The notes under the pieces were generated by a model, which was given only the letters and a program-made list of their open reading frames with translations, was not told where the DNA came from and made no database searches. A DNA stretch of 64,000 nucleotides from a virus. Shown here piece after piece: positions 5,547 through 42,074 of this stretch (its first letter is position 1; each line of letters opens with the position of its first letter). Both the position numbers and the translations under genes were made by a program. The stretch covers positions 1-64,000 of IMG/VR virus record IMGVR_UViG_3300049489_001336; one strand, 5' to 3'.

Positions 5547-5548
5547 GC

Positions 5549-10689: not shown

Positions 10690-11403
10690 ATGAGCTCCAA
10701 CGCATCTTCAGGTTCGCTTTCACGGTATTACAAAGAAGTGGAAGCAACCCGTATGCTGGGTGCTGAAGAAGAGCGAGAGCTAATCCTGTTGTACAAGAAG
10801 ACAAAGGATCCGCGCGCCAAAGACAAAATACTCAAGGGGGCCTTGCGCTACGTTATTTCTGAAGCGCGCAAACACCCTAGAAGCCTGATGGAGCGCACCA
10901 TCCTTGAGGACTTGATCGCTGCAGGTAACATAGGTTTACTTCGTGCTTTAAATAAGTTCGATACCAATGCAGGCACACGGTTTTTAACCTATGCAAGTTG
11001 GTGGGTCCGTCATGAGATGCGAGAAGAAGGACGCAGGCTCGGCTTAGTACACGTACCCGCGCATGCGATGGCTAAAGGAGCTAAATCTCCTAATACGACT
11101 GAGTTCAACGAAGCAGTCACTTCTGAGATGGACATTCTCGTAGAAGACTGCGCTATAGACATCGACATGCAGCAGAGTATGCTTAAGCTTTTTACTCTGA
11201 CAAATTTATCTGTAAGAGAAGTGTTTATCGTCAAAGCGTCTTTCGGGATTCACACAGCCCCCAAAACGCTAAAGCAAATCGGACGTATTCTTGAGATTAC
11301 AGGAGAGCGCGTGCGGCAACTACGTGAGTCGGCCGTAGCCAAATTACGTAGCACCGCAGCGCGCATGCGTGACGAATCAGATGACGCAGACGCCTGTTTT
11401 TAG
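10690..11403 (+). CDS. Sigma70-family RNA polymerase sigma factor
   Basis: Region 1.2 (LSRYYKEV...LGAEEERELI), region 2 (DLIAAGNIGLLRALNKFD...RFLTYASWWVR) and region 4 HTH (TLKQIGRILEITGERVRQL). Confidence 0.9.
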   Translation: MSSNASSGSLSRYYKEVEATRMLGAEEERELILLYKKTKDPRAKDKILKGALRYVISEARKHPRSLMERTILEDLIAAGNIGLLRALNKFDTNAGTRFLTYASWWVRHEMREEGRRLGLVHVPAHAMAKGAKSPNTTEFNEAVTSEMDILVEDCAIDIDMQQSMLKLFTLTNLSVREVFIVKASFGIHTAPKTLKQIGRILEITGERVRQLRESAVAKLRSTAARMRDESDDADACF

Positions 11404-14682: not shown

Positions 14683-15076
14683 TGCGCGGCCCCCTCTGCT
14701 CCAGTTCTCGGCTTCGTCGAATTACGTCTTGAATATCAGATCCGTCGACATCCCTATTGATGACAGCCTCCATCCGCCCCGTACGCCTAGACGGCGTCGG
14801 GTCTAGGAGCTGTGTGAACCCCAAAGGCGGATTGTCGTCCGTAGCTACAGGCTCGTCCTCATCATCCTCTACAGGCTGTGCACGCGCGCTGTGTCTAGGG
14901 GTTTCTGCCGGTTTATCCGGCAAAATATTAGCGTGTACTTTGATGCCGTCCGGGAATGCCCCCTTAAAGAGCTCGCAGAGTTCGTCAATGTTTTTGACCT
15001 CGAAACCTTCGCGTTCGAAGTAGTCAATGATCATTTTCCGGAGGTCTTCGTCTTCGAATTCTAGCTGGATTTTCAT
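14675..15076 (-). CDS. Hypothetical acidic protein
   Basis: Open frame coupled to the SNF2 gene and the nuclease gene. Confidence 0.65.
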   Translation of the reverse strand: MKIQLEFEDEDLRKMIIDYFEREGFEVKNIDELCELFKGAFPDGIKVHANILPDKPAETPRHSARAQPVEDDEDEPVATDDNPPLGFTQLLDPTPSRRTGRMEAVINRDVDGSDIQDVIRRSRELEQRGPRNV

Positions 15077-16983
15077 GGGATAGGCCTCACCGAAGAAATA
15101 TGCCGGAGCATTGTACGGTCATATTTACAATCAGGGTCATACAACTTTATGTTGTATTTCTGACAGCGTTTGTAGAAGTCAGGACACGTAGCACACAACG
15201 GATTCGTAGTTGTGACTAGTTTGCTGAAATCCATTTTTAAGTCAACGGCTTTAACTTTGGCCTCATCCAAAGTATGCCGTGCGACCAAACGATAAACGGT
15301 CACTTTTCTTTTCTGACCAATTCGGTAATTACGATCAAGAGACTGTAGATAATGATCCAAGCTCCAAGGCAAGTTATAATAAATTGTATAATTTGCGGCA
15401 TTGAGGGTAACGCCGATCCCTGTTGAAACTTGGCCAATGTAAACTCTACAATCTGGGTCATTATTGAGCTTGTGCATACACTGCTGGAGTTTCTCTCGTG
15501 TGAAACCTCCGTGTACGCGCACGTAGCCGTAGCCTAGCCCAGAAACAGCCTTTTCCAAGTCGTCTAATTCAGGATGATAATTAGCCCAAATAATTACTTT
15601 ATTTTCAGGCTCTTCCAAAATGGTTTCTAACAGACCCGTGCAATGTTCCAAGCGCGAATTATGCTTGAACCTATGTGTAACGACAGGCGCCCTGTTTTTT
15701 ACGATGTGACAAAACTGCGTATACGGCTTAATTTCTTTTGCGACACAATCATGTACATGGGGACACTTCGTGCAAAGAGCAGGGTTATCCGTCGTTAAAT
15801 TGATGAAGCCACTGCTTATTTGGTCTACTTTGCCGAGAACTACGATGGGCTCATCCGCCAACACATGCGGTGCAACCGTGGTGCCTTGCTCGAAAGACAG
15901 AGATCCCTCTAGGATGTTTTCACGCAGGGCAAGCCCTGCCCCATAAGCCTTATCTCGTACAACATCATTGTACGCTATTTTCTGTTCATGGCTAATAGGG
16001 AAGACTTCATCAATGATTTGTTGATCAGGTAAATCGAGACATTCTTCTTTTGTTTTACGTAGGCAGATGAGGCGTACGCGATCATTCATGATGTCAAGGT
16101 TTTTGAAACCCAAGAGCATCTTAGGAACTGCTTCATCCTTCTCATGATCGGGAAAAACCCCAAACATCTTACGAAACTTCCACCAGTCCTCAGGACAGAA
16201 ATACGTGCCTAAAAAGCGAAGTTGTCCGTACATATCAAAAGGGGACCCCAGAGAAGGTGTCCCTGAAAGCAAAACACGACGGTATGCGCGTGCAGCCAAT
16301 GCCGTAGCCGCTTTAGTTCGGTTAGAGAACCGCGTTTTCAATTGATGCGATTCGTCTGCAAAAATGGCGTTGTAGCCTATTTTCAACAGATCGTCTGTAT
16401 ATAACGAAGCGACCGTATACGTAACAATCGTTGCTGTAGGTGCCTGGGCTTGTGCCTTTGCAATCCGCGCGAGTTTCTCTTTCTTAGAGCCATCGATGAT
16501 TAAAACATCACGTATATTCCCGTGCTTTTCAAATTCCTCAGCCCAAGTACCAAGCATCACAAGAGGACAAAGAATGAGCAGTTTGTCCCCGGTAAGACGT
16601 TGCAAATCAACAGTGATTTTGCATTTACCCAAGCCTGGTGAATAAAATAGGCCTGCGCGAATATACCGATACAAATGCAACAAACCGTCTCTTTGGTGTT
16701 GGTAAGGCGGCGTAATGAAACTAAAATCATCAGGTAAACTGCGCAACTGCTCTAATCGTTGTACGTGTGCGTTAACTTCCGGAGACAGCACTAAGGATGG
16801 AAGTGCCTTCTTAAGGTCGCCTAGTACAATCTGATGGACAGGATAGAACGCAGGGAAGCGCCAGGATTTCGTGGGACCGTTAAAAATAGCCCCATAGACA
16901 CTTTTCACTGTAGGCGGAGCGCCTTGCAGTGTAAAGATTGGGGTACCGTAAACATCGTCTAGTTTTAGCGTGGGGTTCAGCAT
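15073..16983 (-). CDS. SNF2/SF2 family helicase
   Basis: SPGLGKC (motif I), ADESHQLK (II), LLSGTP (III), TGIGVTLNAA (V) and SLDRNYRIGQ (VI). Confidence 0.88.
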   Translation of the reverse strand: MLNPTLKLDDVYGTPIFTLQGAPPTVKSVYGAIFNGPTKSWRFPAFYPVHQIVLGDLKKALPSLVLSPEVNAHVQRLEQLRSLPDDFSFITPPYQHQRDGLLHLYRYIRAGLFYSPGLGKCKITVDLQRLTGDKLLILCPLVMLGTWAEEFEKHGNIRDVLIIDGSKKEKLARIAKAQAQAPTATIVTYTVASLYTDDLLKIGYNAIFADESHQLKTRFSNRTKAATALAARAYRRVLLSGTPSLGSPFDMYGQLRFLGTYFCPEDWWKFRKMFGVFPDHEKDEAVPKMLLGFKNLDIMNDRVRLICLRKTKEECLDLPDQQIIDEVFPISHEQKIAYNDVVRDKAYGAGLALRENILEGSLSFEQGTTVAPHVLADEPIVVLGKVDQISSGFINLTTDNPALCTKCPHVHDCVAKEIKPYTQFCHIVKNRAPVVTHRFKHNSRLEHCTGLLETILEEPENKVIIWANYHPELDDLEKAVSGLGYGYVRVHGGFTREKLQQCMHKLNNDPDCRVYIGQVSTGIGVTLNAANYTIYYNLPWSLDHYLQSLDRNYRIGQKRKVTVYRLVARHTLDEAKVKAVDLKMDFSKLVTTTNPLCATCPDFYKRCQKYNIKLYDPDCKYDRTMLRHISSVRPIP

Positions 16984-18709
16984 GTCGGGCTTAGGGGAAC
17001 CAGGAATTTTGGATCTTGCAGGGTCAAGGGGCCGTGGCAGCCATCCTAACCCCATGTTCGACTTTCTTACAGGGTTTGCACCTCGTAAGTTAAAAGACCT
17101 ATTCCGTTGGGTCGAGTACCTTTACTACAATTCCGCCCACATCTTCGCCGCGATGAAAAAATTCGCGGAATATCCCGTCACTACCGTTTCTATCAACTCA
17201 AACGATGAAGCGTTAAAAACAAATTGGGAACGTGTCCTTAAGAAGCGCATCAAAATAAAGAGCGTAGGTATCTCATCGGGTTTGGATCTGCAGTTATACG
17301 GAAATTCTTTTACCTCCGTATACCACCCTTTTAACAGATTTTTAATCTGCAATCAATGCAATAGCCGCACGGGCATTCGCAAAGTTAAGTACAATTTCCA
17401 TCTAAAGTCCCTTAGCTTTAATTACCACTGTCCGGCTTGTCATAAGCCCACGACAGGCGTCATTCATGACGAAAAAGCTTCGGACGAAAACCGAATCACG
17501 GTGATTCGGTGGGATCCGAAGTTGATGGACATTAACCACAACCCCATCACAAATGAATCCAAGTATTACTACACAATCCCGCAAGAACTAAAGCACAAAG
17601 TAGAAAAAGGGGATGCGCACATCATCAACAGCACCCCTATCGAGTTCTTGAAGGCAATCAAAGACGATAAAGTCTTTGAATTTGCCGATGGTCAAATCTA
17701 CCATATGAAACTAGGAGCCCCTGCGGGTATTTCTTCGCAGTGGGGCTTTCCGCCATTAACAGCGACTATCAAGCTGTTCTTTTATACAGCGGTACTCCGT
17801 AAAGCGAACGAAGCTATCGCTTTTGAGCACATCGTACCGTTCCGGGTATTGCATCCGGCACCCACAAGCGGTGCAGCTGACCCTGCCCAAGTCATGAACA
17901 TGATGAAGTGGCGCCAAGAACTGGCGAGCAACATCAAGCGATGGCGGCGTGACCCCTTGCACATCATGTTTGCTCCCGCTGCACTTGGCGTCACCATGAT
18001 GGGTGGCCAAGGCCGTGCGCTCCTCACATTAGGGGAGATTAAAGAGGCCGAAGAAGAAATCATCGCAGGTATGGGTATTCCCAAAGAATTCCTTTACGGC
18101 GGGCTGTCCTTTACAGGTTCTTCTATTACGTTGCGCATGTTGGAGAACCAACTAGAGACGCACACCGAACAGCTCAATGAGCAGCTGGGTTGGATTATGC
18201 AACAGACTGCCAAAATCCTGGGTTGGAAGTCTGTTGAAGCCGAATACTTGCCGTTCAAACTCATCGATGACGCTCAACAGAAACAAGCGATGTTGCAGCT
18301 TCATCAGCTCACAGGCGGCCAAATTTCGACGAGTACGTTGTTCGAAAACAACGATCTCGACATCAATGATGAGCGTAAAAAACGGCTTCAGGAATCCCTG
18401 GACGAAGCGCGCTTTCAAATGGACCTGCAAAAGAAAATGCAGCAACTCCAGAACTCGCTTACAGAACAAGCGCGTCAAGAGGCCCAATCAGGGACTGGGC
18501 TCAGTTACGACATCCAGGCTGTTTTGTCTGCGGCTGAACAAATGGTCATGCAAATCAGCCAAGCGGATCCTGGTACACAAAAGTCCATGTTGGCGCAGCT
18601 CTCTCAAGAAGATCCGGTCATGTACGCTGTCGTAAAAGACCGTTGGCAAACCATGCAAAGTATGGAAAAACAGCAAATGACTGCTTCCATGCAACCCGGA
18701 CAAGCGTGA
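16982..18709 (+). CDS. Putative portal protein with Zn-ribbon insert and M/Q-rich tail
   Basis: Size, helical character and position as the first gene of the plus-strand virion module; CNQC...CPAC insert. No diagnostic motif, so the call rests on context. Confidence 0.55.
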   Translation: MSGLGEPGILDLAGSRGRGSHPNPMFDFLTGFAPRKLKDLFRWVEYLYYNSAHIFAAMKKFAEYPVTTVSINSNDEALKTNWERVLKKRIKIKSVGISSGLDLQLYGNSFTSVYHPFNRFLICNQCNSRTGIRKVKYNFHLKSLSFNYHCPACHKPTTGVIHDEKASDENRITVIRWDPKLMDINHNPITNESKYYYTIPQELKHKVEKGDAHIINSTPIEFLKAIKDDKVFEFADGQIYHMKLGAPAGISSQWGFPPLTATIKLFFYTAVLRKANEAIAFEHIVPFRVLHPAPTSGAADPAQVMNMMKWRQELASNIKRWRRDPLHIMFAPAALGVTMMGGQGRALLTLGEIKEAEEEIIAGMGIPKEFLYGGLSFTGSSITLRMLENQLETHTEQLNEQLGWIMQQTAKILGWKSVEAEYLPFKLIDDAQQKQAMLQLHQLTGGQISTSTLFENNDLDINDERKKRLQESLDEARFQMDLQKKMQQLQNSLTEQARQEAQSGTGLSYDIQAVLSAAEQMVMQISQADPGTQKSMLAQLSQEDPVMYAVVKDRWQTMQSMEKQQMTASMQPGQA

Positions 18710-20144: not shown

Positions 20145-23100
20145 ATGGCCTTAAATTTGCAACCTGCGATGCTCAGTGCGTCTGAACGGCGCGAACAAAT
20201 TCGTCAAAAGACCATCACAGGGCTGAAAGACCTATTTCCGCTCATTGGTAAGAATTCAACGCTTGATATTCGTAATATCGCTATCAAGCGAAAAGAATAT
20301 TCTACGAACGAGCAAAAAGACGCGCTCATGAGTGGGCGTACGTTGCACGAGCCTATCCAAGCAACGCTTGTTCTTAAGGATAACAAGACAGGCAAAGTGC
20401 TTGATGAAAAGCAACGCACGTTGCTTCACCTTCCTTATTTCACACAACGCTACACGTTTATCGTAGGCGGCAACGAGTACGACATTCCTAGCCAGCTCCG
20501 TTTGAAGCCCGGTGTCTATACGCGCGAGCGCAACAACGGTGAATTTGAAGCCGCTTTCAACTTGAGCAAAGGCGATAACTTCCGTATCGCCATGGAGCCC
20601 GAGTCCGGCAAAATACACATGGAGCTGGACGCTTCAAAAATCCCGCTTTATCCCCTTTTACGTTCTCTCGGGGCGACTGACACAGAGATTAAGAACTACT
20701 GGGGCGCAGAACTGAAAGACGTAAATGCGACTCTCGGTAAAGACAAAGAAGAAGTCGTATTAAACAAAATTATTAACAAGATCAAGCGCGCAGGAGACGC
20801 CGTTCCAGGTACCCTTGAAGGCAAGCGGGATTTTGTACGCAATTATTTTGAAAACACTGCGATGGACGGGGAGGTAAATGAGCGTACGCTAGGTAAGCCT
20901 GTAACTAAAGCAAACGCCTTAGCGCTGCTCACAGCTTCTAAAAAGCTTATCGACGTACACCGGGGTCACGCAAAAGGCGATGATCGTGACAGTCTTGAGT
21001 TTAAGACGATGCACGGTGTTGAAGACTTTTTCCGTGAGCGCTTAGACAAAGAAGCACGCCGCACGATCTCCAAAAAGATTGTCGCACGGCTAAACCAGTC
21101 AAAGACAAACGATATTGGTACTATCGTACCGAATTCTGCGTTTTCTAAGTCGATTAACATGTTTTTGACAAATGCGGCGCTATCGTCCCAGCCCGCACAA
21201 ATTAACCCCGTAGAGATTATCGATTACGCGTCTAAAGTCACTTCGCTTGGCGAAGGCGGCATGAGCAGCGAACGTCAAGTAACCAACGAATCTCGTAAAA
21301 TTCACAATACCCATTTCGGTATTTTAGATCCAGTACGTACCCCTGAAACAGGGCGTGCTGGAATTGACGTACGCAGTAGTTTAGCCGCATTTAAAGACGA
21401 AAAGGGAAACCTTTACTCTTTAATGCAAGACGCGAAAACAGGGAAAATGACCCACGTGCCGGTCATGACCCTGGCGAAAAGTGTTGTTGCGTTTCCTCGG
21501 CAAGATCATCGTAAGCTATTAGACGCGTTCAAAAACGGAGATATACATTCCGTTCAACGTAAAGACGTTGATTATATCCTGCCTGATCCCACGTACATGC
21601 TTAGCCCTGCTACCGCATTAGTGCCTCTGCTAAACGGAATGCAAGGTAACCGCTCTATGATGGGCGCCAAGTTTCAGACACAAGCGTTGCCTTTAGTAGA
21701 TCGCGAAGCGCCTTTCGTACAAGCCGCAGCTCCAAGAAAAGGGCAAAGCATGGAGCGTGAAGTCGCGCGCCTCGTAGTGCCCACATCCCCTGTCGACGGA
21801 ACCATTGATAAGATTGACGACGACTATATCTACATTCGTCCCTCTGCCAAAACAGCGGCAGCGGCCAGTGATCTCGTTAAGCTGCCTTACGACAGCTATT
21901 TTCCTTTGGCGTCTAAAACGTATCTACACAATGAAATAAAAGTAAAACCAGGGCACGTGGTCAAACAAGACCAGATGCTAGCAGAGTCTAACTTCACAAA
22001 AGACGGAACACTAGCATTAGGTAAAAACCTTTCTGTCGCATACCTCGCTTACTACGGTAAAAACTCCAACGACGCAGTCGTGATTAGCGAAGACGCAGCT
22101 AAAAAGCTGACGTCTGAGCACATGTACAAAGAGTCTTTGCCGAAGACGAGTGATGTCGTCACAGGTAAAGATAAATACCGCGCGTACTACGGAATGCGTT
22201 TTACGCAAGCGCAATTAGATAAACTGGATGAAAACGGCGTTGCCAAAAAAGGGGCAATTCTCGCTAAAGGCGACCCCCTCATTCTTGCGTTACGCAAGGC
22301 GGCGCCCACGCCAGAAGCAACACTGTTGGGTAATTTTCATAAGTCCCTTGTTAAGCCGTATCGTGATGCCACGATTACCTGGGACAAAGTAACTCCTTGC
22401 GTAGTGCAAGACGCCGTAAACGCGGCACGACAAATCATGGTTACTGTGCGTACGCAAGAGCCTATGAAAATCGGCGACAAACTCTCTAACCGCTTTGGCG
22501 GTAAAGGCGTTGTCTCTGAGATTATTCCCACGAACCGCATGGTTCGTGACGAGAGCGGTAAACCTATTGACGTACTCTTTACGTCTGCAGGTATCGTCAG
22601 TCGTATCAATCCGGCACAGGTCGTGGAAGCTGCTTTAGGCAAAGTAGCAGAAAAGACAGGCAAGCCTATCATCTTGCCCCAGTTTCACTCAGACGACAAT
22701 GTGCAGTTTGCAAAAAAGCTCTTAAAAGAGCACGGTGTTAAAGACAAAGAAACAGTTTACGACCCAATCTCTGACCGGGAAATCAAAGATATTTTCGTAG
22801 GACGTTCCTACATTCACAAATTATTTAAGTCTACAGAGACTAACTATGCAGCCCGTGGCGTTTCTGATTATGACATTAATCAGCAACCTACCCGTGGCGG
22901 TGAAGAAGGTGCAAAAGGGTTGGGCAAGATGGAGATTAACGCTCTTCTTGCGCATAACGCTCGCAATGTCCTCAAAGAGGCTTTAACCCTCAAAAGTGAG
23001 AAAAGCGATGCCTTCTGGCGTGCGTACGAATTTGGCTTGCCGACTCCGCCGCCTAAAACGCCTTTTGTATCTGAAAAATTGGTATCAATGCTCCAAGGTG

Positions 23101-24536
23101 CAGGCATTAACGTCAATAAACAAGGGACGTTAGTAAGCCTCGCCCCCATGACCGACACGGAAGTAACGAAGATCTCAGCAGGAGGACTTTCGGTTCCCAG
23201 CTTAGAAAAAAGTAAGTCGTTCATGGTCAACGCCAAGAACATGGCTCCCGAGACAGGTGGATTATTCGATCCTAACCTTACCGGGGGTATGTCGGGCACT
23301 AAATGGGCTCATATTGACTTGACCGAGCCTATTGTTAATCCCGTGTTTGAGGACAGCGTACGCCGTCTTCTCGACTTGAGCAAAAAGAAGCTCAAAGACG
23401 AAATAAATACGATTGGTGGCGAAGGCATCAAGAACAAACTCAATGCCTTAAACCTTGACCAATTAGAAAAAGACCTTTTGGCTAAATCTAAAACAGCCAG
23501 AGGGCCTGAACTCGATAACGTCGTAAAGAAAATAAAGTATATCAGAGCGCTAAAAGCGGCAGGGCATACTAAAGCAGGTGACGCCTACACGCTGTCCAAG
23601 CTTCCGGTAATCCCTCCGGTAATGCGGCCTATTTTGCCTTCGGCACGGGGTAATGAGCTACAGGTATCAGACATAAACTATTTGTATCGCGATGCTGCGT
23701 TAGCCAGTGTGGCGTTGGCTAATGCAAAAGAAACCGAAGTGCCCACGTTAGTGCAAAACGCACGTGCGCATCTTCACGACACGACGAGTGCTCTGTTTGG
23801 CCTTACTACACCCACGAGTCCACAATTACAGGGACGTGATGTAAAAGGCTTTATCGAACAAATCGCAGGTTCGGGGTCCCCTAAGAGTGGTTTCTTGCAC
23901 AAGAAAGTACTCAAGCGCCAGCAAGATCTTACCGGACGTGCAACGGCTACGCCCGATAATACTTTGGATATTGATCAAATAGGTATTCCAGAGGATATGC
24001 TTTGGACGACCTATTCTAAGTTCATTATGCGGGGCCTCATCAGTCAAGGGTACAAGCCTTTGGACGCACAAAAAATGATCGAGGAGCGTCACCCTGCAGC
24101 AAAAACGGTGCTTGACCAAGAAACAAAACAACGTCCGGTTTTCGTAAACCGTGCACCGTCACTACATAAGCACAATTTCGTTGCAGCGTACCCTGTGCCT
24201 GTATCGGGTAAATCTCTGCGTGTAAACCCGTTTATGGAGCGTGGTCAAAACCTTGACTACGACGGCGACGCCATGCAGATCCACGTACCTGTCACAACTA
24301 AGGCGGTGGAAGAGGCCCGAAAGCTAACGCTTTCTAATCTGTTGTTTACGGATAGTCACGCCGATGACTTGGTTATTTTCCCACAGCACGAAGCTCTTTT
24401 AGGTACGTATTTGGCGACAAAACCACAGGTGACGAGTGCGGTTCGTAAATTCAAAACCAAAAAAGAAGCTATGGACGCGTATCATCGCGGGGAGATCACT
24501 ATGAATACTCCCGTCGAGATACTAGAATTGACATAA
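20145..24536 (+). CDS. rpoBC: Phage multi-subunit RNA polymerase: beta subunit fused to the N-terminal (catalytic) half of beta'
   Basis: Beta motifs RKIHNTHFG.LDPV.TPE, NRSMMGAKFQTQA, GKN..VAY....G.N.NDA, GDKLSNRFGGKGVV, QQPTRGG...GKME. Beta' motifs GGLFD, LPVIPPVMRP, SDINYLY, NRAPSLH and catalytic NLDYDGD (24249-24269). Confidence 0.92.
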   Translation: MALNLQPAMLSASERREQIRQKTITGLKDLFPLIGKNSTLDIRNIAIKRKEYSTNEQKDALMSGRTLHEPIQATLVLKDNKTGKVLDEKQRTLLHLPYFTQRYTFIVGGNEYDIPSQLRLKPGVYTRERNNGEFEAAFNLSKGDNFRIAMEPESGKIHMELDASKIPLYPLLRSLGATDTEIKNYWGAELKDVNATLGKDKEEVVLNKIINKIKRAGDAVPGTLEGKRDFVRNYFENTAMDGEVNERTLGKPVTKANALALLTASKKLIDVHRGHAKGDDRDSLEFKTMHGVEDFFRERLDKEARRTISKKIVARLNQSKTNDIGTIVPNSAFSKSINMFLTNAALSSQPAQINPVEIIDYASKVTSLGEGGMSSERQVTNESRKIHNTHFGILDPVRTPETGRAGIDVRSSLAAFKDEKGNLYSLMQDAKTGKMTHVPVMTLAKSVVAFPRQDHRKLLDAFKNGDIHSVQRKDVDYILPDPTYMLSPATALVPLLNGMQGNRSMMGAKFQTQALPLVDREAPFVQAAAPRKGQSMEREVARLVVPTSPVDGTIDKIDDDYIYIRPSAKTAAAASDLVKLPYDSYFPLASKTYLHNEIKVKPGHVVKQDQMLAESNFTKDGTLALGKNLSVAYLAYYGKNSNDAVVISEDAAKKLTSEHMYKESLPKTSDVVTGKDKYRAYYGMRFTQAQLDKLDENGVAKKGAILAKGDPLILALRKAAPTPEATLLGNFHKSLVKPYRDATITWDKVTPCVVQDAVNAARQIMVTVRTQEPMKIGDKLSNRFGGKGVVSEIIPTNRMVRDESGKPIDVLFTSAGIVSRINPAQVVEAALGKVAEKTGKPIILPQFHSDDNVQFAKKLLKEHGVKDKETVYDPISDREIKDIFVGRSYIHKLFKSTETNYAARGVSDYDINQQPTRGGEEGAKGLGKMEINALLAHNARNVLKEALTLKSEKSDAFWRAYEFGLPTPPPKTPFVSEKLVSMLQGAGINVNKQGTLVSLAPMTDTEVTKISAGGLSVPSLEKSKSFMVNAKNMAPETGGLFDPNLTGGMSGTKWAHIDLTEPIVNPVFEDSVRRLLDLSKKKLKDEINTIGGEGIKNKLNALNLDQLEKDLLAKSKTARGPELDNVVKKIKYIRALKAAGHTKAGDAYTLSKLPVIPPVMRPILPSARGNELQVSDINYLYRDAALASVALANAKETEVPTLVQNARAHLHDTTSALFGLTTPTSPQLQGRDVKGFIEQIAGSGSPKSGFLHKKVLKRQQDLTGRATATPDNTLDIDQIGIPEDMLWTTYSKFIMRGLISQGYKPLDAQKMIEERHPAAKTVLDQETKQRPVFVNRAPSLHKHNFVAAYPVPVSGKSLRVNPFMERGQNLDYDGDAMQIHVPVTTKAVEEARKLTLSNLLFTDSHADDLVIFPQHEALLGTYLATKPQVTSAVRKFKTKKEAMDAYHRGEITMNTPVEILELT

Positions 24537-24537
24537 C

Positions 24538-24738
24538 ATGGCTGACTTTTATAAACGGGGTAGAACGCTAGCCCTGGCTAAACTAGGGTTTCTTAGTTCG
24601 ATTGACCCGGAAGATCTCCCCGAGTTTTTAGCTGTCTCCAAACGGCGGCAGTTACAAAAACTTTATGAAGCGAATGCGGCAACAGGACTACCTGCAGGTG
24701 GTCTCATCGAAACTCCTAATTACCCCACAACGTTCTGA
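24538..24738 (+). CDS. Small protein with Y-x-x-G-x3-AL-x-KLG N-terminal motif
   Basis: MADFYKRGRTLALAKLGF; the motif is shared with ORFs at 25143 and 41451. Confidence 0.6.
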   Translation: MADFYKRGRTLALAKLGFLSSIDPEDLPEFLAVSKRRQLQKLYEANAATGLPAGGLIETPNYPTTF

Positions 24739-24750
24739 ACAGAGGTAAGT

Positions 24751-25146
24751 ATGGCAACGCCAGGACAAGCATTTTGGCAAACGGCGGTCACCCAATTACT
24801 TGACTTGGTGTTTGTTATCGCCACACCTATTGCGATTACCTTGACACGGCGTCTTATTGCTGTGCTCGAAACCAAGACAGGCGTGGACGTTGCCGAACGT
24901 CACGAACGGTTGATTGACAGTGCCATAGAAAAAGGCATTGCATACGCGCACGAGCAGTCACGCAAAGCCTTAAAAGCCTCCGAAAAACCCATCCCCGGTG
25001 ATGAAAAGAAACGCGCGGCCTTAGCTTTCGCCACAGGGCTGTTAGAAGAGGCGGGAGGCGTAACCTATGTCAAAGACACGTTAGAACGTCTTATCGAAGC
25101 CAAACTCAACATGAGCCGTCCTGCTGACAAACGAGATACGTTATGA
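24751..25146 (+). CDS. Putative holin (LL-H-like) / single-TM membrane protein
   Basis: N-terminal hydrophobic helix LLDLVFVIATPIAI, then IEKGIAYAHEQ...G.EKKRAA...LIEAKL, a pattern typical of LL-H-family holins. Confidence 0.55.
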   Translation: MATPGQAFWQTAVTQLLDLVFVIATPIAITLTRRLIAVLETKTGVDVAERHERLIDSAIEKGIAYAHEQSRKALKASEKPIPGDEKKRAALAFATGLLEEAGGVTYVKDTLERLIEAKLNMSRPADKRDTL

Positions 25147-25385
25147 ATAATTACCAGGCAGGGTGTTTGTCTGCGTTAACCAAACTCGGATTTTCCGCAG
25201 ACGAATTTGCTGAGCTTGTACAGCAAGACGATACAGACGAGTTTGTGAATCAAACGAGCACAAACCCAGAGATTCTTAAAAAGCTAAACACAACGCCTGC
25301 GTGGTCTGATAAGTCTACGCTAGACGCAGGTGACGTAGGCACGCGGGTCCATGAAATGGGCTTACCTCGGTTTGGTGGTGTCTAA
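25143..25385 (+). CDS. Small protein with Y-x-x-G-x3-AL-x-KLG N-terminal motif
   Basis: MNNYQAGCLSALTKLGF. Confidence 0.6.
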   Translation: MNNYQAGCLSALTKLGFSADEFAELVQQDDTDEFVNQTSTNPEILKKLNTTPAWSDKSTLDAGDVGTRVHEMGLPRFGGV

Positions 25386-27190
25386 TGGCAAAAACGCTGG
25401 GTCAGTATCTTTTAGATGAAGTTATTCCTGCGCCCTATCGCCCTAAAGACGGCGTTTACGGTACCAAAGAGCTCAAGAAGAGCATGGTGCAACTCGCCAA
25501 GGATGACCCAGCGAAATACGTAAAAACAATCACGCAAGTAAAACGACTAGGCGATGAGTTTGCCACCAGCATGGGTATCTCGGTTGGCCTAGACGACATC
25601 GCGCCGCAGTACAAGGAGCGCGACGCCATCACTAAGCCAGCGCTTGCTCAAGTTAAAAAAGCAAAGACACCCGAAGACCGTCAAAAGATAATCGCAGAGA
25701 CCCAAGAAAAGCTTTTGCAGTATGCGATTAACCACCCAGGAACCATGGGTGAAATGGCGCGTTCGGGCGCTCGCGGTTCTGCTTTGCAGTTAATGCGTGC
25801 AGTAGGCGCCCCTGCAGCAAGTAACGACGAACATGACCAGTTGCAGCCCTGGCTCACTACGAGAAGTTATTCTGAAGGGTTACGGCCTTCAGAATGGTGG
25901 GCGAATGGGCGTGAAGCCCGTATGTCTGCGGTTAAATCAAACATTGAGGTAACCGAGCCAGGAGATCTCTCAAAAATCCTCGTTAACAACACGAGCGATC
26001 AAGTTGTAACTACCGCTGACTGTGGCACACGAAATGGCCTTTTATTTAAGACTACAGAATCAGCGCCTATCGATAGATTTACTGCGCGTGATGAGCATGG
26101 AATTACACGCAATACGTTAGTTACGCCGCGCATACTCGGAGATTTAAATAAAAAGGGAATTGCCAAAATAATGGTTAGGTCCCCGATGACCTGCGAGTCC
26201 ATGCAGGGCGTATGCCAGAAGTGTATTGGCCTTAACTCGGTAGGGGCATTGAATCGCATCGGCGATAACGTCGGAATTCGCGCGAGTCAGGCCTTGAGTG
26301 AGCCTCTTACACAGCTTGCGCTAAATGCGAAGCACGGCGTGCGTATGTCAGGCCAGAATCCGCTGGACGTGTCGGGTTTGGCAGGATTTCGCATGTTGCT
26401 AGAATCCCCGTCTGCCTTCAAAAACAAGGCTACGCTCGCACCTGAGAACGGAAAAATAACTGATATAAAAAAGGCACCGCAAGGTGGTCACTTTATTACC
26501 CTTAATAGTAATAAAGTATATGTCATGGCAGGGCTTAACCCCGTAGTCTCTGTAGGAGACACGGTTCACGCGGGAGACGTGCTGTCTGAAGGCGTCCCTA
26601 AGCCCGACGAAGTTGTTAAGTACAAAGGGCTCGGTGCAGGACGCGAATATCTCGTAGATAAATTGACGGGTATCTACCAAAACAAAACGGATAGGCGTCA
26701 CTTAGAGGTTTTGGCCAAGTCCCTACTAAATCACGTACAAATAGAAGAAGTCGATGATGATGACTCTGCAGAGCACGGGTTAGTGCGTGGAGATATCATT
26801 GACTACAACCGTTTTAGAAATATTGCGTCAACCAAAGCAGTGGAAACGCCCTTAAATCAAGCAGAGGGGTTGTATTTAGGGGAAGGAATTCTACATCATC
26901 TTGTAGGTACGCGAATTACCGCGCCCCTTATTAATGAGTTGCGCCAGGCAGGCATCACCAAGGTCAAAACCGCAATCAAGGCGCCTGTCGTTTCTCCTGT
27001 AATGGAACCCGCGACGAGAAACCCTTTACTCAACCCTGATTGGCTCGTACGCTTGGGCCACCGCTACTTAAAGAAGTCCATACTGGATGGTGCCCAGCAT
27101 GGTCAAGCTTCAAACGTTCACGGGACGCACCCCCTACCCGGTTTAGTTTTTAGCACTGAGTTCGGTGACGGCGAAGATGGCCGTTACTAA
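25385..27190 (+). CDS. rpoC: RNA polymerase beta' C-terminal half
   Basis: SGARGS, bridge-helix-like SYSEGL...GREAR...EPGDLSKILV, Zn site ADCGT + RSPMTCE..GVCQKC, trigger-loop-like GIRASQALSEPLTQLAL...H, and RRHLEVL. Confidence 0.88.
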   Translation: MAKTLGQYLLDEVIPAPYRPKDGVYGTKELKKSMVQLAKDDPAKYVKTITQVKRLGDEFATSMGISVGLDDIAPQYKERDAITKPALAQVKKAKTPEDRQKIIAETQEKLLQYAINHPGTMGEMARSGARGSALQLMRAVGAPAASNDEHDQLQPWLTTRSYSEGLRPSEWWANGREARMSAVKSNIEVTEPGDLSKILVNNTSDQVVTTADCGTRNGLLFKTTESAPIDRFTARDEHGITRNTLVTPRILGDLNKKGIAKIMVRSPMTCESMQGVCQKCIGLNSVGALNRIGDNVGIRASQALSEPLTQLALNAKHGVRMSGQNPLDVSGLAGFRMLLESPSAFKNKATLAPENGKITDIKKAPQGGHFITLNSNKVYVMAGLNPVVSVGDTVHAGDVLSEGVPKPDEVVKYKGLGAGREYLVDKLTGIYQNKTDRRHLEVLAKSLLNHVQIEEVDDDDSAEHGLVRGDIIDYNRFRNIASTKAVETPLNQAEGLYLGEGILHHLVGTRITAPLINELRQAGITKVKTAIKAPVVSPVMEPATRNPLLNPDWLVRLGHRYLKKSILDGAQHGQASNVHGTHPLPGLVFSTEFGDGEDGRY

Positions 27191-27265
27191 ATCGGTAGTA
27201 AAGACTTGGGCTAAACAATAAACCGGACTATGATTAACGCGTTACCTCTAGAGGAGCAGGTACAA

Positions 27266-28710: not shown

Positions 28711-31700
28711 ATGGCCACTGTCAAGCACGCTCTTCTTTCACCGGCGATCAATGCTCAGCCGGGTATTCCCAACGCTGAGGATGAAAAGCAGCTGTTCGAA
28801 GAGAAGTTCGGACAGATGGCTTATCAAGCGTTCTCTTCAAAATTTCCGGACTTGGTTCCCAATATCGTTACGTTCAAGATTTTGGATTCTGATCTTGAAA
28901 ACGGGACAGGTATTGGCGCGTTCATTATTGAACAAGAAGGGGACTACGTTTATGTCCCCGCTATTGTATCCGAAAATGAATTAAAGCCCTTTGATTTGAT
29001 GTACGTAAAGTCAAAAGACATCTTTTTGCCACTCTCCAACGAGTGGTTAGAAGAAGTCGCAAAGGGCACCATTAACTCCCTCGGGGAGGGCGTTAAGTTG
29101 CCCGATACCGTTGCGACCGACGTCGATATTCGCAATATCGTAGTTCCTCCAACTACGGGTCGTTATAGCTACGCAAGCTTTGAAGTGTCCCCGCGTGCAC
29201 GTATGCACGCTACCGCTTCGGAACCTCTTGGCCGTAGACTGACCAAGCTCGCGGAACTGGGTCCATTTCCGGGTGGCGGTGGCACGGGTGCCGGCGGTGG
29301 TGAAAATACGTTTGACCCTGAGCTTTGGGCCACGTTTGTGGAGCAGTTTCAGCGCATCCAACAGATGACGCCTGGACAGGCGCTCGACAGCAACATGGCA
29401 GATGTTGAGACGCTCTCCAAGATGTACAAGTCCCACCAAAAAACGTGGGAATTGATGAATACATCGGGACCTGCAGGCGCTGCCGTACAGCAACAAGCGG
29501 TACAGCAAGGGCAACCCATGCAGGCTCCCGCAAGCCCCCAAGGTATGCCTCCGGCACAACAAGGCATGCAGGTTACGGCATCTGCGAAAACGGCTAATGC
29601 ACCGCGCACCGTAGGCAGTAAACTCGACTCGCTTTTAGTAAATATCGCCAAAGGAGGCGCCTTAGGTGGTGGTGTTGGCGGCATAGCAGCGGCTGCCGAT
29701 GGCGACTCCTCCGACGTACCCAGCGGCATCGTGCATGGCGCTATAGGCGGTTTGTTAGCTGCCCCTCTAGGGGCTATAGCAGGAGAAGATATCGCAGCGC
29801 GCCATTTCCCCCACACCGGAGCTGTAAAAAGTAGAGCATTGGGTGCCGGCCTTGGCGTAGCTGCAGGCGGTTATTTAGGAGGTACTTCTGAACCTCCTGA
29901 AGTCGTCAATAACTACAACACATTCTCACTTGGAGATGCGGCGCGCTCGCTCATTCCTGGGCTGGGAATGTTGCGCACAGGCGCAGACCATGCCCAAGGT
30001 CTGCGTGACATGATTCGACATGCTCAAAAGAGCACCAAGCACGCGTCGTGTCTTCCTGAGTTTTTGACGCGTGCACCTAATACGGTAAAGCGCGCCTTTA
30101 CTAAGGTACTCGACAAAAATCCCCGGTTACTTAAGCACGCGGTTGATCAATACGGTGAAGACGCGTTGGTTGCTGCGCTCCGCGACACAAAGACTGCGGG
30201 CATGAGTAATACGGGTGGCGCTCTCCTTGTTGCTGACAAGGGAACTGACGCCAAGGCGTACTCAGACTTTTTCGGCGAAGCCGCACCCGAGGCTTTTACA
30301 GGAGTTCTTACGCGCGGCTATTACTTCAAAGATACGCGTAAATCTTTGAATTTAGCTGCGCAAGTTCAGGAATACCATGATTTCCAGGATACGCTGGATT
30401 CTGGTGTTTATAACCTGTACACTGAAGAAGGTGCTCCCAAAGCCGCGCTCGTTTTCGTAGAGCCTTTTGACCTCTTGTCGGCAGATCGCTTTACGTTCCC
30501 GCGCGACGAAAACCGCGTTAAACCCATCAAAAGTAGGGTCCCGGTAGACGCGCATCGCCGCGAGCCCCACAATCTTGGGCCTATTGAGCGTGACCTTCCC
30601 GACGCTCCCGACGTTGAACGGTCCCATAAATACAGCAGAATGGCCATTCTCGGAAATGGCGATTACGTGCTCACACACAAGCTTTTCGGCGAAAAAACAA
30701 CGGAAAGCCTGCTTAAGGGCACCGCTCTCTATTCTGCAATTTTGACAGAAAAGAAAGCACAGGTTTCTCGTGGCGTAGGTTGTTTCGTGGCCAAAAGAGG
30801 CGCGTCCTATTTAGGTACGCTGCCTGTCGAAGTCACAGAGATGACAACCGGCTCTGACGGCGTTATTCGCGGCAAACTTGGCGCTGTTGGTGGTTGGGAC
30901 GTACAGAGCTTCGTAATTGATCCAAAGGCGAACCTGAATCGCCCTATGAAACTCCGTGACCAGCGGTTGGTCCTTATCCCCGCAAGCTGGAAATGGGTTT
31001 CACTCAAAGACAGTAAAGAAGACAGCGACTTCTTGCGTACCGCCGACGCGCTGCACCGCATGGTTCTTAACACTCTGAAAAATGACGGAGTGAAAGAAGC
31101 CGCGGTGAAGAACGCGGGTCACAACATGTTTGCGGTGGACGGTGAGCGTGCACTGGGCAAAAAAGATGCGCTCGTAAAGATCGCACAGAAATACCACGTG
31201 CACGCATCTGCTGCAGAAGCAATGTTGAAAATTGCTTCACACGAAGGCGTATGCCGTGCCTACGTGATGTCTCCTACACGGTATCAGGCTTTAACTGAAC
31301 GCGTGAAAATTGCGCAGGGGCAAGCAGTCCCGCAAACGCCAATGGGCGCTCCTCCTGCAATGCAACAGGCACCTCAGATGCCTATGCAAGCAGCCCCTGC
31401 CCCGATGCCGCAAGAGCCTGCGGCACCTCCGGCACCTTCTCCAGTGGATCAAGCCTTTGGGGAATCTATGGGAATGCTGCAGCAACAAATGCAGCAACTC
31501 CAAGCACAGCTTGATGTGCTGATGATGGTACAACAGCGCGCTCAGCAAATTGAGTCTGGCGAAGCTGGCCAAATGGATCCTTCCCAAAGTATGCAAGGTA
31601 TGCCGCAAGGCATGGACCCTTCTATGGGCATGGACCCGGCTGCTATGGGCGGTCAAATGGACCCCTCAATGATGGGTATGGACCCTGCGGCACAACAGCA

Positions 31701-32082
31701 GCCTCCCATGCCGATCATGAATACGGAAGAGCCTTCTGCGGATGAAATTGCGCAGCAAATTAACCCCGCGTTTTTAGAAAACGCAGCGCAGTTGCACGAA
31801 ACAGGGGCTTTTGACGCGGGCACCATGGCCTCCCTCGCACAGAACTCGACATTAAAGTCGATCACGTCGCAGTTTGCTGCGAATTTTGAAAGCAGCATTG
31901 ACGACTTGGGGCGTTCCCTGTTGACGCTTTACATGCAAGAGCCGCAGCTCAAAGAGCAGTTAGGCGACCAAACATTTATTGATCTTGAGACACAGTTGCG
32001 TGATACATTTCATGGGCTTGGAAAACTGGTACTTTCTATGACCCACAACGCAACGATGTTAGATCCCAATGCGGTCGCCTAA
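28711..32082 (+). CDS. Large putative inner-head/ejection protein
   Basis: 1123 aa with glycine-zipper hydrophobic segments, M/Q/P-rich low-complexity tracts and multiple K-x-A motifs. The function is inferred from context. Confidence 0.55.
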   Translation: MATVKHALLSPAINAQPGIPNAEDEKQLFEEKFGQMAYQAFSSKFPDLVPNIVTFKILDSDLENGTGIGAFIIEQEGDYVYVPAIVSENELKPFDLMYVKSKDIFLPLSNEWLEEVAKGTINSLGEGVKLPDTVATDVDIRNIVVPPTTGRYSYASFEVSPRARMHATASEPLGRRLTKLAELGPFPGGGGTGAGGGENTFDPELWATFVEQFQRIQQMTPGQALDSNMADVETLSKMYKSHQKTWELMNTSGPAGAAVQQQAVQQGQPMQAPASPQGMPPAQQGMQVTASAKTANAPRTVGSKLDSLLVNIAKGGALGGGVGGIAAAADGDSSDVPSGIVHGAIGGLLAAPLGAIAGEDIAARHFPHTGAVKSRALGAGLGVAAGGYLGGTSEPPEVVNNYNTFSLGDAARSLIPGLGMLRTGADHAQGLRDMIRHAQKSTKHASCLPEFLTRAPNTVKRAFTKVLDKNPRLLKHAVDQYGEDALVAALRDTKTAGMSNTGGALLVADKGTDAKAYSDFFGEAAPEAFTGVLTRGYYFKDTRKSLNLAAQVQEYHDFQDTLDSGVYNLYTEEGAPKAALVFVEPFDLLSADRFTFPRDENRVKPIKSRVPVDAHRREPHNLGPIERDLPDAPDVERSHKYSRMAILGNGDYVLTHKLFGEKTTESLLKGTALYSAILTEKKAQVSRGVGCFVAKRGASYLGTLPVEVTEMTTGSDGVIRGKLGAVGGWDVQSFVIDPKANLNRPMKLRDQRLVLIPASWKWVSLKDSKEDSDFLRTADALHRMVLNTLKNDGVKEAAVKNAGHNMFAVDGERALGKKDALVKIAQKYHVHASAAEAMLKIASHEGVCRAYVMSPTRYQALTERVKIAQGQAVPQTPMGAPPAMQQAPQMPMQAAPAPMPQEPAAPPAPSPVDQAFGESMGMLQQQMQQLQAQLDVLMMVQQRAQQIESGEAGQMDPSQSMQGMPQGMDPSMGMDPAAMGGQMDPSMMGMDPAAQQQPPMPIMNTEEPSADEIAQQINPAFLENAAQLHETGAFDAGTMASLAQNSTLKSITSQFAANFESSIDDLGRSLLTLYMQEPQLKEQLGDQTFIDLETQLRDTFHGLGKLVLSMTHNATMLDPNAVA

Positions 32083-34942: not shown

Positions 34943-36802
34943 ATGAGCTATTCGAAAATCATTACGCTTGATGAGCACTTCGCTACGGGTGAACCGACCG
35001 TCCAGTTGGTTTCTACGTGGGGGCGTAATGGTAAGCTTTTGCGTGAAGCAACGTCGCTTCACAAGATCGCTAGTACGAATAGCCCCGCGCTTGATTACAT
35101 CCGTAATGTGGCACCTGAACCCGGCAAGAGCATCGTGCTTGTCGTTGGTTTAGGTGACCACGAAACGTATGGCCCGAATCGCAATGGTGACGGATTTCCT
35201 TCTCAACCAATGCGCGGGAAAATTGCAGCGGATGAAGTGCTAACAAAGCACTATCAAACGTACGATAACGCGCACGTATTTGAGCATCACGTAAATAACG
35301 ATCCCAGTAAAGCCATCGGTAAAGTTAAAAAGGCTTTCTGGAATCCTGCAATGCGGCGCGTTGAGCTCATCGAGGATTTCGATCACGAAAAGGCGCCGCA
35401 TCTTTTAGAGAAAATCGCAAGCGGTGAGTATCCAGCTAAGAGCATGGGGGCGCGCATCAAATACGATGTATGTTCCAATTGCGCCAATAAAGCCCGCACA
35501 CGCTCGGAATACTGTGACCATCTAAAATTCGCAATGAGTCGTATTGACCCCGAAACCGGGATTCAAAATGCTGCGCTTAACCCCAGTCCTCATTTTTTCG
35601 ATAGTTCTTGGGTTATTCGGCCTGCAGATCGTACTGGCTACATGCTTAAAAAGGTAGCTAAAGAGCACCCCTACGAGATTCGCTTGGGTGGCTTTGAATT
35701 CGGTGAAATCGTCAATGATTTATCTCAGAAAGCAGCTGAGATCGGTAAAGCTGCGGATATTGAGAAAATCATTCAAGGTGAACCCGCCGCGAGTGTGTCT
35801 AATTTAGACCCCGCCGACGCACGTCTTGTCGAGCGTTATATGCAGGAGTGCGCTTGTTCTGACGAGCCGAAAGACAATTCCGGCGTCGTCAATATCATGA
35901 TTTCTTACAAGCCCAATGAGGCGATGGACACTGCCGAAGCTGCAGGCCTTCCATTAGGTTTGAAAGAAATCATGCAAATGTTCTTGGGCAAATTGGATCC
36001 TGAACAAGGTCCAAGTTGTGCTTCACCTGAATTACTGAAGTCTGCGAATGACCATTTAGGTCTTATTTTCTCGGTATTTAATGCGTACCCGCGCTTTTAT
36101 TCAGACTTAATCAAAGAGGCGAATTTAGATCAACCTTTCGCGGTAAATGAAGACTTACTGCAAAAAATCGCGATTTGGGATAGTCCGACAGGAGACTACG
36201 TAAAGCGCACGGTGTTGCCGTCTAGCCTATATAGCGGGCGCCCCAAAACGGACGTACTTACGTGGACTGACCCTAATTCGGGCGTTCAGTACAAAACTAA
36301 CTACAATCACGTTCAACAAACCCAAGACGCGCTCATCCGTAAAGGTCTTAAAGACAAAGCAACCGTCAGTGGTGCTTTGTTAGGGACAGGCGCTTTACTA
36401 GGTGGCGCCGCTTACGGTCTTCGTCGTACGCGTGTACCGACGAACTTGCGCCGCGGAATGGGGCTTGTCGGTGCAGGTCTTGGTTTAGTTGGCGGCAAAA
36501 AGTTGATCGACCCTACACCTATTGCCGGACCAAAAATCGTAACTGATCAAGGCGAAACTATTTCTGGTTGGACGCCGATGGTTCAAAACAAAGCCGCCGG
36601 CTACAACCCCGACTTCGCTTACGTCGTAAAGCGCGCGTCAGAGAAACCCTCCAAGATGGATTCTCAGTACATTAAGGGATTCATATCTGGATTGAAGCAG
36701 GCTGAAATCCATGATGCTATGAGCCCCTTTATTGGACCGAACTTAGACTTCGACAAAGTTGCGCAAGCCCTTGGTACGTCGATATTAAAGCGTTCCGAGT
36801 AA
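34943..36802 (+). CDS. Prohead (maturation) protease with long C-terminal extension
   Basis: N.NGDGF, FEHH, KSMG, CSNC...YCDH and FFDSSWVIRPAD, which resembles the HK97/assemblin-type F.E.S.V..PA motif. Lies upstream of scaffold-like genes and the capsid gene. Confidence 0.75.
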   Translation: MSYSKIITLDEHFATGEPTVQLVSTWGRNGKLLREATSLHKIASTNSPALDYIRNVAPEPGKSIVLVVGLGDHETYGPNRNGDGFPSQPMRGKIAADEVLTKHYQTYDNAHVFEHHVNNDPSKAIGKVKKAFWNPAMRRVELIEDFDHEKAPHLLEKIASGEYPAKSMGARIKYDVCSNCANKARTRSEYCDHLKFAMSRIDPETGIQNAALNPSPHFFDSSWVIRPADRTGYMLKKVAKEHPYEIRLGGFEFGEIVNDLSQKAAEIGKAADIEKIIQGEPAASVSNLDPADARLVERYMQECACSDEPKDNSGVVNIMISYKPNEAMDTAEAAGLPLGLKEIMQMFLGKLDPEQGPSCASPELLKSANDHLGLIFSVFNAYPRFYSDLIKEANLDQPFAVNEDLLQKIAIWDSPTGDYVKRTVLPSSLYSGRPKTDVLTWTDPNSGVQYKTNYNHVQQTQDALIRKGLKDKATVSGALLGTGALLGGAAYGLRRTRVPTNLRRGMGLVGAGLGLVGGKKLIDPTPIAGPKIVTDQGETISGWTPMVQNKAAGYNPDFAYVVKRASEKPSKMDSQYIKGFISGLKQAEIHDAMSPFIGPNLDFDKVAQALGTSILKRSE

Positions 36803-41450: not shown

Positions 41451-42074
41451 ATGTACTACGAATACGGACAGCGCGCAGCCTTACAAAAGCTTGGCATGGG
41501 TGCCGCACCTATCCCTTACGCAGGTGCGTCTACACCGACTAACGACATGTTCTCCGCAAACAAACGGCAGGACATTTGGAGCGAAGTGGACAGCACGCCT
41601 ATCGCAATGAGTGGCGAAGAGTCTGCACAAGGAATGCCGAGTGCTCCAAAAAGCGCGAGCTACACAGGCGTAGTCGCTCAGGGCAGTGGCGACGGATTTC
41701 GCGGAGATCCTGAACGTAAAAACAAGTTTGAAGATGGGGTGCGGCGAGCGTTTCAAAGCAACGCCGATATCGATAACAGCACCACCTCTGAACCCGGATT
41801 TGCGTCTCCTAAATTAGCCAATAGCTTTTTCAACATCGGCAAAGGCCTACGTCCGAGCAGCTTAGGTCCGCGCAGTACTTCTTCATTAATGGGTAAGACG
41901 TCACCCAGCATGCCAAAACCTGGCGGCAATTTAAATGCGTCTTTGAACCCCATGAAGTCCCCGGTGATTAAACCCCCGACACCCATGCAGCCTAATTTAG
42001 CGCGGGGAGCTCACATGTCCCTTATGGGATCAAGCGTCAACTCTCCAATGCATCGGTTTACGAGTCCTTTATGA
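41451..42074 (+). CDS. Low-complexity protein with Y-x-x-G-x3-AL-x-KLG N-terminus
   Basis: MYYEYGQRAALQKLGM; PKSAS and PKLAN motifs. Confidence 0.6.
   Translation: MYYEYGQRAALQKLGMGAAPIPYAGASTPTNDMFSANKRQDIWSEVDSTPIAMSGEESAQGMPSAPKSASYTGVVAQGSGDGFRGDPERKNKFEDGVRRAFQSNADIDNSTTSEPGFASPKLANSFFNIGKGLRPSSLGPRSTSSLMGKTSPSMPKPGGNLNASLNPMKSPVIKPPTPMQPNLARGAHMSLMGSSVNSPMHRFTSPL

Follow-up and report, generated by a model that had tools for sequence, protein, structure and literature searches.

Multisubunit RNA polymerases (RNAPs) encoded by bacteriophages have been described in several layouts. The enzymes of the phiKZ/AR9 type are phage-owned, lack alpha and omega, include a virion-packaged form and carry beta' in two pieces and beta in two to three, with two enzyme sets (virion and non-virion) and no sigma70 homolog (PMC7598289, PMC7824862). 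The gp66-type RNAP of crAss-like phages is a giant single chain without similarity to beta/beta' that hidden Markov models (HMMs) can detect, and the paper describing the mReC lineage, environmental tailed phages with a cellular-like RNAP, applies the word 'fused' to crAssphage only (PMC7481178). According to reviews, large phages that encode an RNAP have no sigma factor, and those that encode a sigma factor have no RNAP and borrow the host core (PMC7824862, PMC13282480). The locus considered here lies in a stretch of 64,000 nucleotides (the window), the first 64 kb of the IMG/VR virus record IMGVR_UViG_3300049489_001336. This record of 189,879 bp is rated complete and was obtained from freshwater sediment; a second freshwater study contains the same DNA, and no RNA run is listed among the sequencing runs with it. 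Two genes of the window, encoding chains of 1463 (chain 1) and 601 (chain 2) amino acids (aa), probably constitute the catalytic core of a phage-owned bacterial-type RNAP, in the form of a derived split of a single-chain family of ~2,050 aa. This is a new variant of the phage multisubunit RNAP, and the family is large, barely described and has cultured, testable members.

An earlier note on the window had claimed two open reading frames (ORFs) of these lengths with three small ORFs between them, and had read them as a multisubunit RNAP in which beta is fused to the catalytic N-terminal part of beta' (beta'N), with the C-terminal part (beta'C) on a separate gene. Both claims hold, the second on the evidence of Pfam, NCBIfam, the PDB and an alignment with Salmonella. 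In Pfam, chain 1 matches Rpb2_3, Rpb2_6 and Rpb2_7 at residues 352-954 and Rpb1_1 and Rpb1_2 at residues 1114-1395 (E-values of 8.8e-43 for Rpb2_6 and 4.1e-19 for Rpb1_2). Its top PDB matches are bacterial, namely Thermus beta (1.8e-67) and beta' at residues ~157-562, and a cyanobacterial beta is covered from 57 to 1059 of 1104. The NCBIfam rpoB model is matched at 4.7e-99 and the rpoC model at positions 159-533. Chain 2 matches Rpb1_5/Rpb1_4, beta' structures in the PDB (3e-35) and positions 550-1070 of the rpoC model, so that chain 1 stops at position 533 of this model and chain 2 begins at 550. Firmicute beta' structures match both chains. Taken over the three collections, the matches span beta 46-993 and beta' as two abutting pieces. 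Chance origin is excluded, because the E-values reach from 1e-43 to 1e-99.

The anatomy of the two chains was derived from a MAFFT alignment with Salmonella rpoB plus rpoC (locus L006) and 10 relatives. The fusion point, which had been expected near 23100-23135, is placed by the alignment at 23088-23165. Here, beta ends with MLQGAGINV (23088-23114) and is followed by SLAPMTDTEV (23136-23165), with neither a linker nor a stop codon. The beta' part of chain 1 extends to about E. coli residue 548, a short way beyond the catalytic loop. The motifs NLDYDGD, NRAPSLHK and RFGGKGV align to E. coli beta' 458-464, beta' 424-431 and beta 1061-1068, respectively, and chain 1 keeps the clamp helices, the lid/rudder region, NRAPSLH, the Asp triad and the lysine of the beta GxKG motif. 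The SI3 insert and the large beta inserts are not present in the aligned polymerase. The break between the chains sits in a surface loop (E. coli beta' ~550-570), and between ~548 and ~572 of beta' nothing but loop is missing. Together, the two chains hold every catalytic element of the bacterial core, which in relatives is contained in one polypeptide. Chain 1, with the clamp helices and the Mg-binding Asp residues, and chain 2, with the bridge helix, the trigger loop and the zinc site, would thus rebuild one beta::beta' unit.

The features of a bacterial-type two-barrel enzyme, i.e., the DxDxD Mg loop, NRxPxLH, the GxKG lysines, the bridge helix, the trigger loop and the second zinc site, were all found; the alpha dimer, omega and the N-terminal zinc ribbon of beta' were not. 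The loss of the latter, noted earlier as a missing zinc finger, is evident from a gap of ~32 residues in chain 1 at C70/C72/C85/C88 of Salmonella beta'. Since only one of the 1463 residues of chain 1 is a cysteine, a zinc ribbon in this chain is impossible. The four cysteines of chain 2 all belong to the second zinc site. The deletion is common to every family member examined. As the RNA exit channel of bacteria includes the beta' zinc ribbon, the loss of this ribbon predicts a changed control of RNA exit, termination or antitermination.

The identity of the polymerase chains to Salmonella rpoB/rpoC is ~26%, and the NCBIfam equivalog cut-offs are missed by far (333 against 896 for rpoB NF001616; 185 and 176 against 963.5 for rpoC_TIGR). 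These values speak against a decaying or recently captured host rpoBC, or an assembly contaminant, devoid of polymerase function, as which the non-canonical NLDYDGD, the E813N change in beta and the missing zinc ribbon could otherwise be read. Hundreds of diverged relatives with intact frames, invariant catalytic residues and a conserved phage context also oppose this explanation, and a search of 185,579 bacterial species genomes yielded no relative, which leaves no clue to the host. Such an origin is highly improbable, and the enzyme is probably real and active.

Chain 1 and chain 2 form one translationally coupled unit with the three genes between them, since from the chain 1 stop to the chain 2 start the five genes abut or overlap (TAAcATG, ATGA, TAATG). 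The 131-aa ORF with a membrane helix is kept inside the polymerase operon across the close clade. The N-terminal tag Y..G...AL.KLG[FM] starts about ten unrelated proteins, including both of the other small ORFs between the polymerase genes, two encoded at 41451-42074 and 53676-54086 of the window and six encoded outside it. The equivalent small ORFs of four relatives (L008, L010, L012 and L013) are tagged, and those of the phages Arash and D69 are not. The tag may serve in capsid targeting or assembly. The gene downstream of chain 2 (27230-28507) was considered as a fused partner and rejected, as BLAST and jackhmmer found no link to the C-terminal extensions that beta'C carries in other family members. 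The coordinates of all these elements are collected below.

Table. Polymerase chains, their functional elements and the neighbouring genes, in window coordinates
Feature	Position	Strand	Remarks
sigma70-family factor, regions 2 and 4	10690..11403	+	ortholog of Arash gp196, 37% identity
SNF2-family helicase	15073..17055	-	divergent from the portal gene; syntenic in relatives
Portal protein homolog	16970..18709	+	33% identity to Arash gp204
RNAP chain 1, 1463 aa	20145..24536	+	complete beta to residue ~995, head-to-tail with beta'N
Equivalent of the rifampicin pocket (E. coli beta 510-533)	21180..21248	+	D516A, H526Y and S531T-type residues
beta/beta' junction	23088..23165	+	beta' residue ~19 directly follows the last beta helix
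Position of the lost beta' zinc ribbon	23256..23321	+	GGLFD, 12 residues, WAHIDL; in bacteria ~45 residues with four Cys
beta' clamp helices, residues 1163-1213	23631..23783	+	aligned to E. coli beta' ~252-305
Mg-binding loop NLDYDGD (canonical NADFDGD)	24249..24269	+	all three Asp kept
66-aa ORF, translationally coupled	24538..24738	+	N-terminal tag Y..G...AL.KLGF
131-aa ORF	24751..25146	+	N-terminal membrane helix; weak holin-family matches
80-aa ORF	25143..25385	+	N-terminal tag as in the 66-aa ORF; stop overlaps chain 2 start
RNAP chain 2, 601 aa	25385..27190	+	C-terminal half of beta' from E. coli residue ~572
Chain 2 bridge helix	25913-25999	+	from alignment
Chain 2 zinc site, Cys213/270/277/280	26015-26224	+	from alignment
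Chain 2 trigger loop	26273-26407	+	from alignment; His kept
Chain 2 region H	near 27038	+	from alignment; SI3 insert not present
1123-aa protein	28711..32082	+	N-terminus matches Arash virion protein gp218
Prohead-protease-like protein	34943..36802	+	marks the head module around the polymerase genes

The closest cultured relatives are the Salmonella phage Arash, with 35% identity over the full length, and the Vibrio phages D69, D181 and D148. They share the two-chain layout, the junction, the zinc-ribbon deletion, the break point and the synteny of the window, but their chains are only 30-35% identical to it, and the catalytic loop reads AADYDGD in Arash and D69. In Arash, gp206 is the counterpart of chain 1 and gp216 that of chain 2, separated by nine unrelated genes (two in D69), and the genome carries two sigma-like genes and SNF2 helicases, as does that of the window. 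The authors of the Arash study name the chains simply beta and beta' and do not mention the fusion (PMC10585845). The gene order of SNF2 helicase, portal, small ORF, chain 1, zero to nine small genes, chain 2 and a gp218-like gene is common to the cultured relatives and 10 closer metagenomic loci. In the literature searched, no description of the fused or single-chain architecture was found, an absence that is not proof.

The earlier note missed the fully fused relatives, both sigma factors and the extent of the family. Chain 1 has at least 869 relatives in the protein database, of which the best 120, down to 51% identity, all hold beta and beta' in one protein, in some cases together with inteins. 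An exhaustive search with chain 2 yielded 1108 cluster representatives (E<=1e-30), bacterial beta' included, and the best 150 of the 1108 all belong to this polymerase family. Among these 150, 95 intein-free representatives were classed: 54 are stand-alone chains of ~600 aa, 18 are beta'C with a C-terminal extension of 350-800 aa (in one case a GNAT domain), 16 are full fusions of 2,000-2,600 aa and 7 are others. The remainder of the 150 are mostly beta'C with inserts of ~380 aa. Matches of ~1000 aa, which had been considered as unsplit beta' of the mReC type, proved to be such beta'C with inserts at residues ~190 or ~316. In two IMG/VR loci (L017 and L019), a single ORF (2096 and 2140 aa, respectively) encodes the same parts without interruption at the break, with the canonical NADFDGD and without a zinc ribbon, and 79 of 80 further IMG/VR loci have a single frame of at least 1975 aa. 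The single-chain forms, mostly of ~2,000-2,170 aa, share with the window the junction, the zinc-ribbon loss and the portal neighbourhood (L017, L019, L024-L103), and differ from it in being one polypeptide with NADFDGD, the window enzyme being encoded by two genes. The features that mark the family, i.e., beta joined to beta' at residue ~19, a deleted zinc ribbon and a gene next to the portal gene, are all present in the window.

The insertions into these genes follow a pattern of their own. Inteins (PF14528) and homing endonucleases often target the polymerase genes of the family (P0022, P0054, P0086, P0093 and others, and beta'C of the P0161 type), those of the Vibrio phages D181 and D148 among them. 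The ~380-aa inserts recur at chain 2 residues ~190 and ~316, the latter in the trigger loop. In some relatives, a GNAT domain is joined to a polymerase chain.

The history of the split was examined in trees obtained by quick searches. With two bacteria as the root, the beta'C tree shows the family as a single clade (98) in which the fused forms make up a basal grade, and a clade of 71 rows, nearly all of them split forms (97), holds the window, Arash and D69. In a full beta' tree, for which giant-virus RPB1 served as the root, the family (100) and the group of window, Arash and D69 (99) were likewise recovered. The trees thus favour, and do not prove, a single split of an ancestral one-chain beta::beta' phage polymerase as the source of the window layout. 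The break point also recurs elsewhere: the beta'C-like ORF150 of the Ralstonia phage RP13 and chain 2 have start points no more than one residue apart. This bears on the earlier statement that the phiKZ/AR9 enzymes split both subunits differently, which is right for beta and wrong for beta', broken at the same place. Further differences set the window apart from that type, as its beta is intact and fused, it has one polymerase set (a single Rpb2_6 match in the genome) and sigma genes are present. The similarity is also much lower, with PHROG matches of 24-76 bits against 248, and none of the 60 best PDB matches listed for either chain is a phiKZ/AR9 enzyme.

Two cellular systems resemble the window in one respect each. 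The fused RpoBC of Helicobacter and Wolbachia (NF007172, NF011417) has the same beta-beta' order, and chain 1 matches both models, at 271-315 bits against cut-offs of 4632-5372. These cellular proteins have ~2,850 aa and work with alpha, omega and the zinc ribbon. In cyanobacteria and plastids, beta' is broken into rpoC1 (gamma) and rpoC2 in the same region: chain 2 residue 24 aligns to residue 14 of cyanobacterial RpoC2, and chain 1 reaches position 549 of the 619 in the gamma model, which places the break of the window ~20-40 residues upstream. The cyanobacterial enzymes differ in having beta unfused to gamma and in retaining alpha, omega and the zinc ribbon. From the crAss gp66 type, the window polymerase is distinguished by its strong similarity to beta/beta' in Pfam, NCBIfam and the PDB.

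The earlier note also suggested membership in the mReC lineage, which it took to have a fused RNAP. Such membership is unlikely, as the published mReC table (Supplementary Data 2, PMC7481178) lists a separate beta of ~920-1560 aa and an unsplit beta' of ~900-1300 aa. Some likeness exists: the window stems from a large environmental phage whose RNAP aligns with cellular enzymes, and its TerL matches PF03237 (4.7e-08) as in mReC. In addition, four mReC-like candidates (L145, L146, L170 and L183), which were chosen by size and whose identity as mReC is unproven, have a separate beta of ~1000 aa and a beta' of ~900-1010 aa and are sister to the family in a quick full beta' tree with two bacteria (Shimodaira-Hasegawa-like approximate likelihood ratio test, SH-aLRT, 93). 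However, the zinc-ribbon cysteines are kept in three of the four, and the candidates give higher scores with bacterial beta' than with the window family. No match to the capsid family PF07068 was found in the genome, in a search without a positive control. None of the 12 sample identifiers of the relatives' contigs occurs in the mReC RNAP lists, one of them appearing only as a reference contig of the capsid tree. With its fused and split genes, the window family is not mReC as described and probably at most a sister lineage. Two of the candidates, L170 and L183, are probably of the mReC type; here beta' (~904-924 aa) and beta (~1002-1022 aa) are adjacent separate genes in this order, with the zinc ribbon kept. 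Among the matches listed, a scan for the codon pattern of NADFDGD returned mostly giant-virus contigs.

The absence of alpha, stated earlier for the window, extends to the whole 189,879-bp genome. Six-frame profile searches found no match to alpha (PF01000) or omega (PF01192) in it, while 14 of 14 control genomes were positive. A single alpha-like match to PF01193 at 57450-57650 on the minus strand (E-value of 0.006 per genome, 14.9 bits against a cut-off of 24) was ruled out, as the ORF around it, of 126 aa, encodes an N-terminal membrane helix and has no phage homologs. The covalent link between beta and beta' may stand in for the alpha dimer as an assembly platform, which would make alpha and omega dispensable.

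Some points weigh against reading the two genes as the core of an active, self-sufficient polymerase that arose by splitting. First, the clade of the window has Asn at beta E813 (GKNSNDA) and Ala at beta H1237, deviations that could lower or alter catalysis. Second, the absence of alpha rests on sequence profiles, and a non-homologous or host-derived assembly factor may take its place. Third, the branches of the trees are long and only two bacterial outgroup sequences were included, so the fusion-first direction depends on the root.

Promoter recognition in the proposed system would be provided by phage factors of the sigma70 family, docking on the retained clamp helices and the flap. In addition to the gp196-like factor of the window, the genome encodes a divergent member at 162143-162820, outside the window, which is the ortholog of Arash gp10 (34%, E 1e-37) and has weak but consistent matches to the RpoD family. 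This gene is located in a structural module, by an amidase gene and gp6/gp8/gp13-like genes, and has 127 database relatives. The clamp helices of beta' are the docking site of sigma region 2. Co-folding of the divergent sigma with residues 1000-1463 of chain 1 gave a score of 0.86, compared with 0.00 for the best control; this score is attained by 58 of 80 solved complexes and by 2 of 110 mismatched pairs. Three runs share at least 50% of the contacts, the partner has a predicted local distance difference test (pLDDT) value of at least 72, and the contacts map to the clamp helices (residues 1163-1213). The result expresses likeness and is no proof of binding, because complexes of sigma with clamp helices have already been solved.

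A scan for the sigma70 consensus around the polymerase genes stayed at the level of shuffled sequences. The motif GGYAYAAGA occurs in 11 copies against 6 expected, which is not significant given a shuffle maximum of 13. Ten of the 11 copies are on the minus strand (genome 62785-117603), mostly 14-66 nucleotides upstream of the starts of minus-strand genes. Only this bias in strand and position is notable, and the motif may represent a second promoter class.

Packaging of the polymerase in the virion, which the earlier note derived from the neighbouring inner-head genes, gained indirect support, by homology only. In sucrose-gradient purified virions of Arash, gp206 was the most detected protein with 3516 spectra and gp216 the fifth with 1210, and the sigma gp10 (467 spectra) and the SNF2 protein gp217 (1148) were present too (PMC10585845). 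The polymerase genes of the window are located between the portal gene and the prohead-protease-like gene, and in all relatives they lie inside the head module. Moreover, the genome has only one polymerase set, so that any host-independent early phase would need the enzyme in the particle. On balance, these observations favour a model in which the head contains the core and the divergent gp10-like sigma and both are injected, so that early transcription would be independent of the host RNAP and insensitive to rifampicin. The gp196-like sigma would take over later. The polymerase is probably insensitive to the drug, as judged from the residues changed in the rifampicin pocket, which fall on known resistance positions.

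A less probable alternative is that the enzyme is real but unpackaged and serves middle or late transcription after infection, the early genes being read by the host RNAP, perhaps with a phage sigma. The Arash signal would then be carry-over. The proteomics comes from the relative Arash, whose preparation, made on a sucrose and not a CsCl gradient, gave 116 of 272 proteins, including metabolic enzymes such as ribonucleotide reductases (PMC10585845). Its authors caution that abundant infection-phase enzymes may carry over, and gp196, the ortholog of the clear sigma of the window, is not in their virion list (PMC10585845). Against carry-over stand the top rank of gp206 and the high counts of gp216, gp10 and gp217. 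Packaging of the core with the gp10-like sigma is thus preferred.

A broader proposal is more tentative. The family may be a natural minimal machine in which one or two polypeptides and a phage sigma suffice, the covalent link replaces alpha, and two sigma factors, one of them packaged, reprogram the core in time. Such a machine would break the rule that RNAP-encoding phages are free of sigma and vice versa. The family does combine its own RNAP with sigma, unlike the two groups of the reviews, and the Arash particle carries both. The occurrence of beta::beta' in a single chain, in two chains and in intein-containing forms is a natural experiment on core assembly without alpha and omega, and it also bears on the purpose of the beta' zinc ribbon. 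Because Arash and the Vibrio phages can be grown on laboratory hosts, these questions are directly testable. A compact, sigma-dependent and probably rifampicin-insensitive polymerase could also serve as a tool enzyme.

Several neighbouring genes deserve mention. A second SNF2-family helicase gene, at 72156-73604 of the genome and outside the window, is the ortholog of Arash gp217, which is abundant in the virion and directly follows the beta'C gene in Arash. The position of SNF2 genes near RNAP genes echoes the SNF2-RNAP link of phiKZ-type phages. On the minus strand of the window, a gene at 2490-5552 encodes a family A DNA polymerase with an N-terminal domain of the uracil-DNA-glycosylase superfamily, and another at 54147-55253 encodes an IS605 OrfB/TnpB-like protein with OrfB_IS605, Cas12f1-like TNB and helix-turn-helix (HTH) domains.

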